Shown here: one piece after another, positions 29,929 to 43,772 of the stretch | How the letters are laid out: every line of letters begins with the position of its first letter | How positions within the stretch are numbered: position 1 is the first letter of the stretch | Assembly (NCBI RefSeq): GCF_050920415.1 | Contig: NZ_CP169309.1 | DNA length: 64,000 nt | Reading direction: 5' to 3' (one strand) | Source: Escherichia coli | Lineage (GTDB): Bacteria; Pseudomonadota; Gammaproteobacteria; Enterobacterales; Enterobacteriaceae | Program-made: the position numbers and the translations under genes | The notes under the pieces: generated by a model | The model's input: the letters and a program-made list of their open reading frames with translations, nothing else | Database searches by the model: none | What the model was told of the DNA's origin: nothing

Positions 29929-31125
29929 TCAGCTTGCGAGACGCGTCACCTCTTTTCTGGCGACTTCACGCGCGTTCGTATCAACAGATAACACATCGTC
30001 CACGCATTGTGGTTCGCGCATATCCATTTTTTCCAGTACGGATAAATTCAACGCGGCGATATCCGTAAAGCGGATTTGTTGCGCAAGAAAGGCTGCAACG
30101 GTGATTTCGTTTGCGGCATTCAATGCAGTCGTCGCAGCCTGGCCTTGTTCGAACGCGTCCATTGCCAGTTTAAGGCATGGATAGCGATCATAATCCGGTG
30201 CGGCAAATGTCAACGCACTGAGTTTGCAAAAATCGAGCGGCTTCACACCAGAGTTCACGCGATTCGGCCAGGCCATGGTGTGGGCAATTGGCGTACGCAT
30301 ATCCGGTTCACCCAACTGCGCCAGAACGCTGCCGTCCTGGTAGCGCACCATTGAGTGAATCACTGACTGCGGGTGAATCAGCACTTCCATCTGGCTGGCA
30401 CTGGCGTTAAACAACCAACGCGCTTCAATGTATTCCAGACCTTTGTTCATCATGGTAGCCGAATCGACAGAAATTTTACGCCCCATCGACCAGTTCGGAT
30501 GACGGCAGGCTTGATCCGGCGTCATTATTGCCAAATCGCGCAATGGCGTCTCACGGAAAGGGCCACCAGACCCGGTAAGTAAAATGGACACCACGCCATT
30601 TTGCTCAAGGTCAGCGTATCCCAGATTATGCTGGATAGGTTGCGGTAAACTCTGAAAAATGGCGTTATGTTCGCTATCGACCGGTAACAATTGCGCTTTG
30701 CTCTGCTTTACGGCGTCCATAAACAGACGTCCGCAGGTAACCAGTGATTCTTTATTGGCCAGCAAAATGGTTTTACCCGCGCGGATCGCAGCAAGCGTAG
30801 GTAACAGCCCAGCAGCGCCAACAATGGCTGCCATCACCTGATCAACATCCTCAAGCGCTGCCATATCGCAAGCGGCTTGTTGCCCACTTAAGACTTCGGT
30901 GCGGCTACCCTGTTGCTGTAGCATCGTTTTAAGAAGTTTCGCACTCGCTTCATCGTCCATTACGGCATAGCGGGGAGAGAATTCCAGGCACTGCTCTACC
31001 ATGCGAGTGACATTTTTGCCTGCCACCAGCGCAACTACGCGGAAGTGTTCGGGATTATGGCGCACCACGTCCAGCGTGCTGCAACCAATCGAGCCGGTCG
31101 AGCCCAGAATGGTGAGTTGCTTCAT
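29929..31125 (-). CDS. dxr: 1-deoxy-D-xylulose-5-phosphate reductoisomerase
   Basis: 398-aa [28 protein letters not shown].... Confidence 0.97.
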
Positions 31126-31217: not shown

Positions 31218-31775
31218 TCAGAACTGCATCAGTTCTGCTTCTTTGTCTGCCAGCGCCGCTTCAATTTTCTTGATTGCAGCATCAGTCAGTTTCTGTACAT
31301 CGTCCTGAGAACGGCGATCGTCGTCTTCGCTGATCTCTTTATCTTTCAACAGTGCTTTCACTTTGTCGTTCGCGTCACGACGCACGTTGCGTACTGCAAC
31401 ACGCGCTTGCTCTGCTTCACCACGAACGATTTTGGTCAGATCTTTACGACGTTCTTCCGTCAGCGGCGGCAGCGGAACACGGATGTCGCTACCCGCAGAG
31501 TTCGGGTTCAGGCCAAGATCGGACGCCATAATCGCTTTTTCAACGGCCGGAGACATTGAACGATCAAACACGTTGATTTTCAGAGTACGGGAATCTTCTA
31601 CCGTTACGCTTGCCAGCTGACGCAGCGGCGTCGGCGTGCCGTAATATTCCACGACAATGCCATCCAGCAGGCTGGGAGAAGCACGACCCGTGCGTATTTT
31701 GCTGATTTGGGTTTTGAACGCTTCTACGCATTTGTCCATGCGTACTTCAGCATCTTTTCTGATATCGCTAATCAC
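31218..31775 (-). CDS. frr: Ribosome recycling factor
   Basis: 185-aa ORF (M)[20 protein letters not shown]... from a GTG start. Confidence 0.97.
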
Positions 31776-32066
31776 GTTACGAATCCTTGAAAACTTGTCT
31801 CAGTCAGACCAGACAGTCACACACAGTGGAAGTGTGCTAAGTATAGCCCTGATTAAACATATTACGGGTAATCGTCTGGATTATTAGGCTATTTTATTTG
31901 CCATTTTGGCCCCGGGCAGTGCTCGCCATCCTCACGTACTTGTGTACGCTCCGGTTGCTGCGCGCTGGCCGTGACCAAACTGCCTGCAACAATAACGCCT
32001 TATAACCAGACTTACGCCCCCGCGATACTTGTGCGGAATCTTACCCTTATTTATCCATCACGGGAA

Positions 32067-32792
32067 TTATTCCGTGATTAAAGTCCCTTCTTTTTCACCC
32101 ATTACCACACGGCGCAGCGCACCCGGTTTGTTCATGTTGAAAACACGAATCGGTAATTTATGGTCACGAGCCAGCGTGAAGGCCGCCAGGTCCATGACTT
32201 TCAGCTCTTTTTCCAGCACTTCGCTGTAAGTCAGTTGCTCGTACATGGTTGCGGTTGGATCTTTCGCCGGATCAGCGGTAAACACGCCGTCAACTTTGGT
32301 TGCTTTCAGCACCACATCAGCTTCAATTTCGATACCACGCAGGCAAGCTGCTGAGTCGGTGGTAAAGAACGGGTTACCTGTACCGGCGGAGAGGATCACC
32401 ACACGGTTGTTGCGCAACAAGCTGATAGCTTCTGCCCAGCTGTAGCTGTCGCACACGCCATTCAATGGAATAGCGGACATCAGACGAGCGTTCACATAGG
32501 CGCGGTGCAGTGCATCACGCATTGCCAGGCCGTTCATTACGGTCGCCAGCATTCCCATGTGGTCGCCCACAACGCGGTTCATACCCGCTTTCGCCAGACC
32601 AGCGCCACGGAACAGGTTACCCCCACCAATCACCACACCAACCTGAATACCCAGTTCAACCAGTTCTTTGATTTCCTGAGCCATGCGATCCAGTATGCTT
32701 GCATCAATACCGAAGCCTTCCGTGCCCTGCAGAGCTTCGCCACTCAACTTAAGCAGAATGCGTTTATAGACGGGTTTTGCATTGGTAGCCAT
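32067..32792 (-). CDS. pyrH: Uridylate kinase
   Basis: 241-aa [24 protein letters not shown].... Confidence 0.97.
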
Positions 32793-32938: not shown

Positions 32939-33790
32939 TTAAGACTGCTTGGACATCGCAGCAACTTCTGCTGCAAAGTCAGTCTCAACTTTCTCGATGC
33001 CTTCACCTACTTCGAAGCGGATGAAGCCAGTCACTTCAGCGTTATGCTCTTTCAGCAGCTGACCAACAGTTTTGCTTGGTTCCATAACGAACGGCTGACC
33101 GGTCAGAGAAACTTCGCCGGTGAATTTCTTCATGCGGCCTTCAACCATTTTCTCTGCGATTTCTTTCGGCTTACCAGACTGCATCGCGATATCCAGCTGA
33201 ACCTGGTATTCTTTCTCTACCACTTCAGCGGAAACATCTTCCGGTTTGATGAATTCTGGTTTGCTTGCAGCAACGTGCATAGCGATGTGTTTAACCAGCT
33301 CTTCGTCAGCGCCTTTAGCAGCAACCAGAACGCCGATACGCGCACCGTGCTGATAAGAACCCAGAACGTCGCCTTCCAGCGCAGCAACGCGGCGAATGTT
33401 GATGTTTTCACCAATTTTCGCTACCAGCGCAACACGTTCTTCTTCGAACTGTGCTTTCAGAACTTCAACGTCAGTGATTTTGCCAGCAACAGCTGCGTCC
33501 AGAACTTTGTCTGCGAACGCCTGGAAACCAGCGTCTTTTGCAACGAAGTCAGTCTGGCAGTTAACTTCCAGAATGATGCCGTAGTTGCCGTCGATTTTGG
33601 TTTTGATCACGCCGTCAGCAGCAACGTTGCCTGCTTTTTTCGCTGCTTTGATAGCACCGGACTTACGCATGTTTTCGATTGCCAGCTCGATGTCGCCGTT
33701 AGCTTCAGTCAGTGCTTTTTTGCAATCCATCATGCCTGCGCCAGTACGCTCACGCAGCTCTTTTACCAGGGATGCGGTAATTTCAGCCAT
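32939..33790 (-). CDS. tsf: Elongation factor Ts
   Basis: 283-aa [30 protein letters not shown].... Confidence 0.98.
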
Positions 33791-33842: not shown

Positions 33843-33873
33843 AAGTGAAAAAGGGGGCCATATGCAGGCCCCC
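33843..33873 (-). terminator. Intrinsic terminator or attenuator in the rpsB-tsf spacer, ~50 nt upstream of tsf
   Basis: Minus-strand GGGGGCC-TGCATAT-GGCCCCC perfect 7-bp GC stem followed by TTTTTCACTTTT. Confidence 0.8.
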
Positions 33874-34047
33874 TAACCAAACGTGTACTACCTGGTCTAT
33901 AAGGGCTCTCCCCCTTCATATTTCGCGCCGCAGATGCGTTGTCTTCGCTCGCTCATCCCGGTCACTTACTGATGTAAGCTCCCGGGAATTCTCGAGCTTG
34001 CCGCCTTTCTGCAACTCGAACTATTTTGGGGGAGTTATCAAGCCTTA

Positions 34048-34995
<948 letters not shown>

Positions 34996-42302: not shown

Positions 42303-43727
42303 TTACTGCATTAACAGATAGATGGTGCTGTCGCCGCGCTGAATATTCAGTGCCAGCACAGACGGTTTGCTGTCGAGAACTTTACGCAGTTCAGCGATGT
42401 TTTTCACTGCCTGCTGGTTCGCACCAATAATCACATCACCTTTCTTCAGGCCGATCTGCGCAGCCGGAGTGCCCGTTTTCACGTTGTTCACCACCACGCC
42501 CTGATCTTTGCCTTTGTTGCTCATCTCAGCGCCTTCAATGCCGTTGAAGATGGTGCTGGAATCAACCTGATTCTGGCTGCTCTGCTGCAGTTCCAGGTTC
42601 ACGTTAACCTGCTTCCCGTCGCGCAGTAAGCCCAGGGTCAGTTTGCTGCCTACCGGCATAGTGCCCACCTGAGCACGCAGTGCGGCAAAGCTGCTGATTG
42701 GCTTACCGTTCAGTGAGGTGATCACATCACCCGCTTTAATGCCCGCTTTCGCGGCGGAAGAGTTCGGCAGAACCTGGCTTACGAAAGCACCGCGCTGGGC
42801 GTCAACTTTCATCGCTTTCGCCAGATCGGAGTTCAGCTCAGTGCCCATAATACCCAGCTCACCACGTTTCACCTGGCCGTATTCCACCATCTGCGAGGTC
42901 AGGTTTTTCACCATGTTGCTCGGGATAGCAAAACCGATACCGATGTTTCCGCCGTCCGGTGCGAGGATCGCGGTGTTGATACCAATCAGTTCGCCGTTCA
43001 GGTTAACCAGCGCGCCACCAGAGTTACCCCGGTTGATCGCAGCATCGGTCTGGATGAAGTTTTCATAGTTTTCGGCATTCAGACCGCTACGCCCCAGCGC
43101 AGAGACAATCCCGGAAGTTACCGTCTCGCCCAGACCAAACGGGTTACCAATTGCTACGGTGTAATCACCCACGCGCAGTGCATCAGAATCCGCCATCTTA
43201 ATTGCGGTCAGATTTTTCGGGTTCTGGATCTGGATCAGCGCGATATCAGAGCGCGGATCTTTGCCAACCATCTTCGCGTCGAACTTACGACCATCGCTCA
43301 GCTGGACTTTAATCACCGTCGCGTTATCAACAACGTGGTTGTTGGTGACGACATAGCCTTTATCGGCATCAATGATGACGCCGGAACCCAGCGCCATGAA
43401 TTTCTGTTGTTGGCCGCCGCCATTACCGCCCTGGCCCCCCTGGCAGAACGGAGAGCTCTGGAACGGAGAACCTTCCTGGCAGAACGGAGAATCATCACCG
43501 AAGAACTGCTGGAAATTACGCGGCATACGCGGCGTATTAACGGTTGTGCTACCTTCTACGTTAATGCTGACCACTGAAGGCATCACCTTTTCGAGCATCG
43601 GTGCAAGGCTTGGCATCTGCTGGGCTGTCGTTGCTGAAGAAGTCTCAGCCGCCGTTGCAGAGAGCGGAGATAACGCCAAACCTAAACTCAGAGCCAGTGC
43701 ACTCAGTGCTAATGTGGTTTTTTTCAT
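42303..43727 (-). CDS. degP: Periplasmic serine endoprotease DegP (HtrA)
   Basis: 474-aa ORF with signal peptide, trypsin-like domain (GNSGGAL), Q/G-rich loop and two PDZ domains. Confidence 0.97.
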   Translation of the reverse strand: MKKTTLALSALALSLGLALSPLSATAAETSSATTAQQMPSLAPMLEKVMPSVVSINVEGSTTVNTPRMPRNFQQFFGDDSPFCQEGSPFQSSPFCQGGQGGNGGGQQQKFMALGSGVIIDADKGYVVTNNHVVDNATVIKVQLSDGRKFDAKMVGKDPRSDIALIQIQNPKNLTAIKMADSDALRVGDYTVAIGNPFGLGETVTSGIVSALGRSGLNAENYENFIQTDAAINRGNSGGALVNLNGELIGINTAILAPDGGNIGIGFAIPSNMVKNLTSQMVEYGQVKRGELGIMGTELNSDLAKAMKVDAQRGAFVSQVLPNSSAAKAGIKAGDVITSLNGKPISSFAALRAQVGTMPVGSKLTLGLLRDGKQVNVNLELQQSSQNQVDSSTIFNGIEGAEMSNKGKDQGVVVNNVKTGTPAAQIGLKKGDVIIGANQQAVKNIAELRKVLDSKPSVLALNIQRGDSTIYLLMQ

Positions 43728-43772
43728 GTATTTCAGTCTCGATTAACAGATAACGCAAAATTGCTGTGTTCT

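Follow-up and report, generated by a model that had tools for sequence, protein, structure and literature searches.

The spacer between pyrH and frr in this Escherichia coli genome is most plausibly an ordinary Enterobacteriaceae spacer of about 149 nt that acquired one palindromic repeat insertion, and that insertion is probably a tolerated passenger. We assign a probability of roughly 0.8 to this reading. The gap between pyrH and frr is long because a repeat of about 145 bp is inserted between the two frr promoters (P1 and P2). The insertion is polymorphic among E. coli genomes, its sequence belongs to a dispersed repeat family, it has the potential to form a long hairpin, and it is located between the two published start sites of frr. 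The feature is an ordinary element of an already known kind and not a dedicated regulator or a small-RNA gene.

Results

Locus and size of the pyrH-frr spacer

The analysis covered one stretch of 64,000 nt of E. coli DNA (the window). The pyrH coding sequence (UMP kinase) is located at 32067..32792 on the minus strand with its TAA stop codon at 32069-32067. It was identified from the list of ORFs and from 100% identical E. coli matches annotated as pyrH. The frr coding sequence (ribosome recycling factor) is located at 31218..31775 on the minus strand with a GTG start at 31775, and it was identified from the list of ORFs and the annotation of its identical matches. The tsf (32939-33790) and dxr (29929-31125) genes are also located on the minus strand. 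The spacer between pyrH and frr is exactly 291 nt (31776-32066), with both flanking genes on the minus strand. It is 100% identical to the spacer of MFDS1022581 and 98.5% identical to that of K-12. The K-12 spacer (192581-192871) is also 291 nt, so the length is not an artefact.

No other co-directional junction in the cluster is as long as the pyrH-frr spacer. The other junctions are 92, 185, and about 146 nt, together with seven of 30 nt or less. The first-pass annotation, which was made from the sequence alone, had stated that most junctions are under 30 nt, and this is roughly right. It had also reported that the 291-nt gap contains no credible ORF, which was confirmed here: the ORFs of the spacer are 29-36 aa, they lie inside the repeat, those on the minus strand begin with TTG, and they are not credible as genes. 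The description of the region as GC-rich holds for a central block only (31905-31975, 66% GC), since the whole spacer has 48.5% GC compared with 52.2% for the window. The remark that 291 nt exceeds what a promoter needs was correct, and the excess of 142 nt is the repeat insertion.

Long and short alleles of the spacer

A 451-nt query spanning the spacer was searched against 5425 complete E. coli genomes. The long allele was matched end to end in 3512 of them. The query matches the remaining genomes (about 1900) as two pieces whose span is 142 nt shorter. The long allele is present in K-12, in a BL21-type strain, and in O111:H8. The short allele of 149 nt is present in CU42ET-1 and in CFT073, a uropathogenic strain of phylogroup B2. 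O157:H7 has no copy of the repeat at the pyrH-frr site.

The alignment of both alleles shows 145 nt (CGTAAGTCTGG…CCAGACGA) in the long allele in place of ATC in the short allele. The repeat, which is of RSA type and MITE-like, is located at 31872..32016 on the minus strand with the ends CGTAAGTCTGGTTATAAGGCG ... AGCCTAATAATCCAGACGA, and its 145 nt replace 3 nt to give a net gain of 142 nt. The bounds of this copy according to nhmmer are 31869-32015 (147 nt). The empty site reads GGGGGATCTTACCCG and the filled junctions read GGGGGCGTAAG… and …GACGATTACCCG, with no clean target-site duplication.

The spacers were also measured in the frr loci of 80 species, a sample that does not include E. albertii, E. 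fergusonii, and Salmonella. The sampled Enterobacterales spacers are 107-190 nt except for three that carry other long inserts (274, 275, and 254 nt). The spacers of more distant gammaproteobacteria are mostly 2-105 nt with a few that are longer. The RSA-type insert was absent from every sampled outgroup Enterobacterales spacer. The short E. coli allele is collinear with Enterobacteriaceae outgroups through the insertion point, where CTTACCCG is continuous. The insertion is the derived state because CTTACCCG is uninterrupted in the outgroups and their spacers are short.

ERIC-like inserts were identified at two different points of the pyrH-frr spacer in Enterobacteriaceae bacterium RIT691 (L011, 1727-2000) and Kluyvera genomosp. 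1 (L022, 1726-2000), where the spacers are 274-275 nt. The pyrH-frr spacer is a recurrent landing site because these inserts are independently present in the two other genera. Other long spacers were seen in Brenneria (L031, 254 nt), Hafnia (L036, 190 nt), and Shewanella (L053, 262 nt).

Copies of the repeat and its predicted fold

The repeat was found by blastn at 1-8 places per genome (median 5) in the 5425 E. coli genomes and at six places in the K-12 derivatives EPI300 and MC4100. The paralogues are 151-153 nt and 78-88% identical to the frr copy. Copies were fetched from the spacer between the pheM attenuator and pheS (sense), from the hemE-nfi spacer (antisense), and from the region between the divergent rlmKL and ycbX genes, and a partial copy was found on plasmid pEGY2. 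All four E. coli loci examined are intergenic. A profile search found no further copies in the 64-kb window. The pheM-pheS copy of E. coli (L005, 1486-1638) is in sense orientation downstream of the pheST attenuator and ahead of the pheS start codon, which makes it a second case of the repeat within the leader of an essential translation gene.

The consensus of the repeat has the terminal inverted repeats (T)TAGAGCCTGG..CA.CAGGC and GCCTGATGG..CCAGGCTCTAA, with CAGGC on the left and GCCTG on the right. The terminal repeats of the frr copy are degenerate, where the ends have diverged and the left terminal repeat has a 1-nt deletion. The repeat profile also matches the opposite strand because the whole unit is an imperfect palindrome. 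The flanks are CTTAG…CTTAG at the nfi copy and CTAAG…CTAAG at the rlmKL copy, and every end has TA. The nfi and rlmKL flanks suggest a short target duplication, whereas the junctions at pyrH-frr are not clean and 3 nt are replaced.

The repeat as RNA is predicted to fold into one long hairpin (-57.8 kcal/mol, z = -3.6), and the whole spacer folds better than its shuffles (z = -2.8). The hairpin is predicted to be closed and self-contained, and the rest of the leader folds alike in both alleles. The predicted unpaired probability of the ribosome-binding region is 0.545 with the insert and 0.539 without it.

Promoters, leader, and transcript ends of frr

The SMRT-Cappable-seq supplement for K-12 lists an frr start at 192616 with 475 reads and a transcription unit of 192616-193491, as well as a second frr start at 192813. 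These starts correspond to positions 32031 and 31834 of the window by ungapped alignment. The P1 start (32031) follows the pyrH stop codon by 36 nt and precedes the repeat by 15 nt, and the P2 start (31834) is located downstream of the repeat. The presumption that the spacer holds an frr promoter is thus upheld by published starts. The hairpin lies within the main frr mRNA leader because the two starts flank the repeat. The leader of the major frr mRNA is 256 nt with the insert and would be 114 nt in strains with the short allele.

P1 (32031..32066, minus strand) consists of a weak -35-like TTCCCG (32066-32061), a -10 TAAGAT (32043-32038), and the major start at 32031. We infer these hexamers from the sequence, and the consensus scan for promoters and terminators gave no call on the minus strand of the spacer. 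P2 (31834..31845, minus strand) consists of a -10 TATACT (31845-31840) inside the conserved CTATACTTAGC and the minor start at 31834. The proximal leader with the ribosome-binding region (31776..31822, minus strand, …TGGTCTGACTGAGACAAGTTTTCAAGGATTCGTAAC) is conserved and contains the Shine-Dalgarno AAGGA at 31788-31784. The spacer alignment shows that the P1 block GGTAAGATTCCGC is conserved across Enterobacteriaceae. The P2 block CTATACTTAG is kept in 13 of 32 Enterobacterales loci, all 13 of which are from Enterobacteriaceae. The proximal leader TGGTCTGACTGAGACAAGTTTTCAAGGATTCGTAAC is near-invariant in the Enterobacteriaceae alignment, and it is predicted to be largely unpaired with and without the insert.

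The -10 region of P2 (31838-31848) is conserved and reads GCTATACTTAG. The -10 element preferred by sigma-S is KCTATACTTAA. The P2 sequence (GCTATACTTAG/CTATACTTA) resembles this element, and P2 may be a stationary-phase promoter of frr.

Transcripts that read through from pyrH into frr, and longer ones, are documented for K-12 in the SMRT-Cappable-seq paper. No 3' ends at K-12 positions 1925xx-1927xx are present in the SMRT-Cappable-seq or Term-seq tables (Adams et al., 2021), and the Cappable-seq and Term-seq tables contain neither start sites nor 3' ends between K-12 positions 192617 and 192812. The sole nearby 3' ends in the Term-seq data are at K-12 positions 192871 and 192996, and both are low-scoring (Adams et al., 2021). 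The first corresponds to position 31776 of the window, which is the base just before the frr GTG start, and the second corresponds to about 31651, which is 124 nt inside frr. Pausing, processing, or protection by initiating ribosomes are possible sources of these ends.

The hairpin at the pyrH stop codon

A small imperfect hairpin that holds the pyrH stop codon in its loop is located at 32058..32077 on the minus strand, and its mRNA reads directly as UCACGGAA-UAA-UUCC(C)GUGA. The palindrome that had been noticed at this stop codon is therefore present, but it is imperfect with one bulged C. The hairpin shares sequence with the -35 region of P1; it is followed by GGAUAAAUAAGGG and lacks a U tract. 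The stem-loop ACGGAA-UAAU-UUCCGU is retained in about 12 Enterobacteriaceae loci, which include one compensatory variant (ACUGAA/UUCAGU in L015) and several G.U variants. The stem is absent in Erwiniaceae, Yersiniaceae, and beyond among the sampled frr loci. These variants provide thin evidence of selection on pairing in the hairpin. A pyrH terminator, which the first-pass annotation had presumed, is unsupported because there is no U tract, no terminator call on the minus strand, and no mapped 3' end, and because read-through exists.

Comparison with RSA repeats and MITEs

RSA repeats are palindromic and extragenic elements of about 152 bp with about six copies in K-12. The repeat in the pyrH-frr spacer most probably belongs to this family, which it matches in size, copy number, palindromic form, and extragenic position. 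The length is 147 nt (nhmmer) or 145 nt (indel) for the frr copy and 151-153 nt for the pheS, rlmKL, and nfi copies. The copy number agrees with the six places in K-12 derivatives, and both the location of all four loci in intergenic regions and the extended imperfect dyad symmetry agree as well. No differing feature was found when the repeat was compared with these general properties rather than with a published consensus. The family (synonym BEE95) is attested by the title of Bachellier and Hofnung (1996), as cited in PMC3751351. The literature search for descriptions of RSA/BEE95 or for the tip motif as text returned nothing usable, and NC_000913 has no repeat feature annotated at the pyrH-frr spacer. 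RSA-like matches were found in Escherichia, Klebsiella, Citrobacter, Salmonella, Enterobacter, Proteus, and other genera. Among annotated plasmid records, they were found in many Enterobacterales genera as well as in Aeromonas and Comamonas.

The repeat also resembles MITEs such as Correia/NEMIS, YPAL/RU-2, RUP, and BOX. Both are short and non-coding, and both have terminal inverted repeats. Both occur in intergenic regions and operons, exhibit presence/absence polymorphism, and are co-transcribed with flanking genes. Filled and empty sites, by which such elements are recognised, are seen here as the 291-nt and 149-nt E. coli alleles and the empty outgroups. The repeat differs from MITEs in that it has no clean target duplication at the pyrH-frr site and in that its tip is conserved across very different genomes.

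Comparison with ERIC, sX9, and CssrA

ERIC/IRU (127 bp) has the same architecture as the repeat: both form a long imperfect hairpin, and both are intergenic, transcribed, and polymorphic between strains. ERIC copies can be aligned with the RSA-like consensus in a single orientation, with z = 5.9-7.1 in pairwise alignment against shuffles, and it is this comparison that links the two. The shared blocks are AAGGCGG … GGAGC-TAC – loop – GTA-GTGA … GGAT/GGGT … GAGCGAGC … CAACGC. ERIC differs from the RSA-like element in its length and terminal repeats, and it has insertions of 1-3 nt inside a motif that is invariant in the RSA-like family. The RSA-like sequence profile gave no match to ERIC copies at E < 1. 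The ERIC core inverted repeat GTGAATCCCCAGGAGCTTAC…GTAAGTGACTGGGGTGAGCG (ERIC1R/ERIC2 primers) was absent from 31776-32066 by blastn, and it was matched at 33950-33991 of the window and in L011.

The match in the window belongs to an ERIC/IRU copy (33909-34041, minus strand, core 33950-33991) in the rpsB-tsf spacer, which is 257 nt. The rpsB-tsf spacer of CFT073 is 134 nt and has 10 nt of unrelated filler in place of the ERIC copy. The K-12-type lineage hence has two palindromic repeats in the rpsB-tsf-pyrH-frr region (ERIC and RSA) and CFT073 (B2) has neither. The Rfam family CssrA (Shigella chromosomal sRNA) matched at 33853-33962 on the minus strand with 136.6 bits. This match spans from 8-10 nt past the ERIC tip to the rpsB intrinsic terminator and takes in the 3' half of the ERIC copy. 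Judged from this layout, CssrA looks like half a repeat plus a terminator, which would be a processed tail of the rpsB mRNA.

The Rfam family sX9 (RF02228) matched the frr copy at 31934-31984 on the plus strand with 21.1 bits (E = 0.42), which is below the gathering threshold of 44. A related metagenome locus (L090) scored 47.5 bits against the same threshold of 44. On the opposite strand, the sX9 model spans the tip and one arm of an RSA-like palindrome. Few Rfam 'sRNA' families are matched as widely as sX9, as expected of a dispersed repeat. Northern blots have shown sX9 as a 75-nt RNA in Xanthomonas; unlike RSA, it is described as an RNA and not as a DNA repeat.

Besides the sub-threshold sX9 match, nothing that explains the element was found when the spacer, the complete window, and 20 related loci were scanned against Rfam. 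A match to HrrF in L103 was rejected, as it has 33 bits, is below the threshold, and covers the flanks. The known RNAs in the window are t44/tff (34801-34887) upstream of rpsB and the HtrA (degP) 5' UTR thermometer (43722-43767), which are both ordinary and on the minus strand.

The conserved hairpin tip

The tip of the hairpin is 27 nt (31928..31954, minus strand) and reads CCGGAGCGTAC-ACAA-GTACGTGAGGAT in an exact-pattern scan. The exact pattern CCGGAGCGTAC-N3-6-GTACGTGAGGAT was searched against metagenome contigs and was matched in at least 120 of them. Among the matches listed, the contigs that bear the tip range from 37% to 72% GC. Only some of the matched contigs have full RSA-like units, and elsewhere just the central 35 nt or so fit the RSA profile. 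Among the same matches, the tip always forms the end of a long hairpin, the arms of which vary from instance to instance but are complementary within each. The arm-to-arm score has a median of 25 compared with 12 for mismatched instances, and 59% of the scores are above the 99th percentile of the control. The three base pairs beside the core exhibit many compensatory changes. A second conserved internal loop (…CAAGGC… / …CAACGC…) is present in many members.

Neighbouring copies give unbiased variation because they were not selected by the exact tip pattern. They exhibit C-G to U-A at the base of the terminal stem (L095 and L145), A-U to C-G below the loop (L198), and G.U to A-U (L166 and L090). 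The inner CCGGA/GAGGA loop hardly varies in them.

Tandem arrays of hairpins with a period of about 115-140 nt were seen in L099 (7290-7910), L092 (10060-10290), and L166 (5340-5690). The array in L099 has two alternating unit types and adjoins tRNA-Arg and tRNA-Phe genes. A small element is nested after the tip (…GAGGAT|gattcgctacgctcccccttcgggccgccctgaagggcgttcaaaac…|gagcactg…) in the RSA-like copies of the enterobacterial-type metagenome contigs L120, L156, L164, L167, and L186, and it looks like a repeat within a repeat.

Several candidate identities of the tip were considered and rejected. The tip (GUACGUGAGGA + CCGGAG) is a permuted near-copy of 23S rRNA 2655-2671. The resemblance to the sarcin-ricin loop involves GUACG[A/U]GAGGA + CCGGAG, L208 corresponds to 23S rRNA 2654-2673 and 2709-2719, and the repeat arm shares the 11-nt GCACTGCCCGG with 23S helix 97. 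A sarcin-ricin fold was rejected since GAGTGTAC…GTACATGAGG (L095 and L145) support a CGUAC/GUACG stem and since the A preceding GUAC is not conserved. A canonical K-turn was rejected, although the polarity of the tandem G.A pairs fits it, since it would need a 3-nt bulge that the tip lacks and since the nucleotides that follow GAGGAU covary not with CC but with those preceding CCGG. A strand-specific RNA function was rejected since the copies show no preferred orientation with respect to flanking ORFs (crude ORF calling) and since the two strands have equal G.U counts in the arms (538 vs 546). The sense strand has an advantage of 5.6 kcal/mol that may come from the invariant core. A link to tRNA genes was rejected since an adjacent tRNA was found in 4 of 120 loci among the matches listed.

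Discussion

The ancestral spacer consisted of the stop-codon hairpin, the tandem promoters P1 and P2 with starts about 55 nt apart, and the conserved ribosome-binding leader. A palindromic repeat of about 145 bp then landed between P1 and P2 in a lineage that includes K-12, BL21-type strains, and O111:H8. The repeat behaves like a non-autonomous, MITE-like element, most probably of the RSA family. The insertion extended the spacer to 291 nt and moved the P1 and P2 starts to 197 nt apart. As a result, both the major frr mRNA, within its 256-nt 5' UTR, and the pyrH-frr read-through transcripts contain a self-contained imperfect hairpin of about 70 bp.

We infer that the insert is a tolerated passenger and not a dedicated regulator of frr, because both alleles are common for an essential gene, predicted access to the ribosome-binding site is unchanged, and a sister copy is present in the pheS leader. 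The insert may have a modest effect on the processing or stability of the mRNA by analogy with what has been reported for ERIC repeats. Against neutrality, three of the four E. coli copies examined adjoin translation-related genes (pheS, frr, and rlmKL), and the tip of the repeat is conserved far more than a decaying passenger would require.

The repeat could instead have been co-opted. As part of the frr 5' UTR, its hairpin would either be a cleavage substrate of RNase III or RNase E or block decay from the 5' end, and it would thereby set the stability or the 5' end of the P1-derived and read-through frr mRNA. The element is sense-oriented inside the major frr transcript with a stable predicted fold, the Rfam 'sRNA' families CssrA and sX9 are halves of related palindromes, and the 75-nt sX9 species points to cleavage near the tip. 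In Yersinia, ERIC repeats within transcripts reportedly affect mRNA processing and stability, which would be a precedent. We nevertheless consider co-option unlikely, as the Term-seq tables show no processed ends within the element, the literature search on RNase III and frr returned no data, strains with either allele are common although frr is essential, and the predicted access to the ribosome-binding site is the same in both alleles. A dedicated and conserved cis-regulatory leader of frr, such as a riboswitch or a protein-binding operator, would agree with the strong conservation of the proximal 47 nt and the two promoter blocks in Enterobacteriaceae and with a spacer fold that beats its shuffles. 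The excess length and nearly all of the predicted structure stem from the repeat, though, and the repeat is missing in about 35% of E. coli genomes and in all sampled outgroups, recurs at unrelated loci in either orientation, and matches no Rfam family, while the conserved proximal part is short and predicted to be largely open. This makes such a leader very improbable, and within the 142-nt insert it is largely refuted. The structured leader proposed by the first-pass annotation thus exists in the trivial sense that a long hairpin is present in the main frr 5' UTR, but it is a dispersed repeat and not a dedicated leader.

The same annotation had raised the possibility of an unannotated small RNA. 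Related palindromes elsewhere do yield short RNAs (sX9 and CssrA), but the transcribed strand of the element has no promoter-like or terminator-like site, the K-12 maps show no start or 3' end at 192617-192812, and the Rfam match reaches 21 of the required 44 bits. An independent small-RNA gene in the spacer is accordingly most improbable, and the excess of 142 nt is a dispersed repeat. It is even harder to credit that a pyrH terminator and, after it, a simple frr promoter require the length of the spacer. There is a hairpin at the pyrH stop codon and there are frr promoters in the spacer, but the hairpin has no U tract or mapped 3' end, the scan called no minus-strand terminator, and pyrH-frr co-transcripts exist. 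The 149-nt short allele contains the same promoters, and this explanation of the length is already contradicted. The insertion of a probably tolerated repeat into an ordinary spacer remains the preferred reading.

A broader proposal concerns the family to which the insert belongs. The RSA copy might be part of a very widespread superfamily of long hairpins that includes ERIC and sX9, with the tip as a functional RNA or single-stranded DNA motif, and we put this forward only tentatively. The tip of this putative superfamily would consist of a helix, a purine-rich CCGGA/GAGGA internal loop, and a CGUAC-loop-GUACG hairpin, and many members would also have the AAGGC / AACGC loop. Its functional role is suggested by the fact that it stays unchanged at 37-72% GC while the arms around it covary. 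The tip might be read by a conserved host or mobile-element factor, either for mobilisation or for RNA processing.

The main finding itself changes little, as an odd feature of raw sequence is resolved into a repeat insertion. It is of use for studies of frr expression, where the main leader of K-12 carries a 145-nt hairpin and those of CFT073 and O157:H7 do not, and where the distance between P1 and P2 depends on the strain (55 or 197 nt). The two repeats (ERIC and RSA) in the rpsB-tsf-pyrH-frr region provide natural pairs of alleles for measuring the effects of such repeats on essential and highly expressed translation genes. To our knowledge, the mobilisation of this class of bacterial repeats has never been explained. 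If the link between RSA, ERIC, and sX9 through the tip is confirmed, it would point to a common mechanism for the class. If the superfamily is real, the frr leader of K-12 would be a convenient site for testing the tip module. Follow-up may be worthwhile only for the conserved tip and the RSA-ERIC-sX9 link, which could matter more than the main finding.
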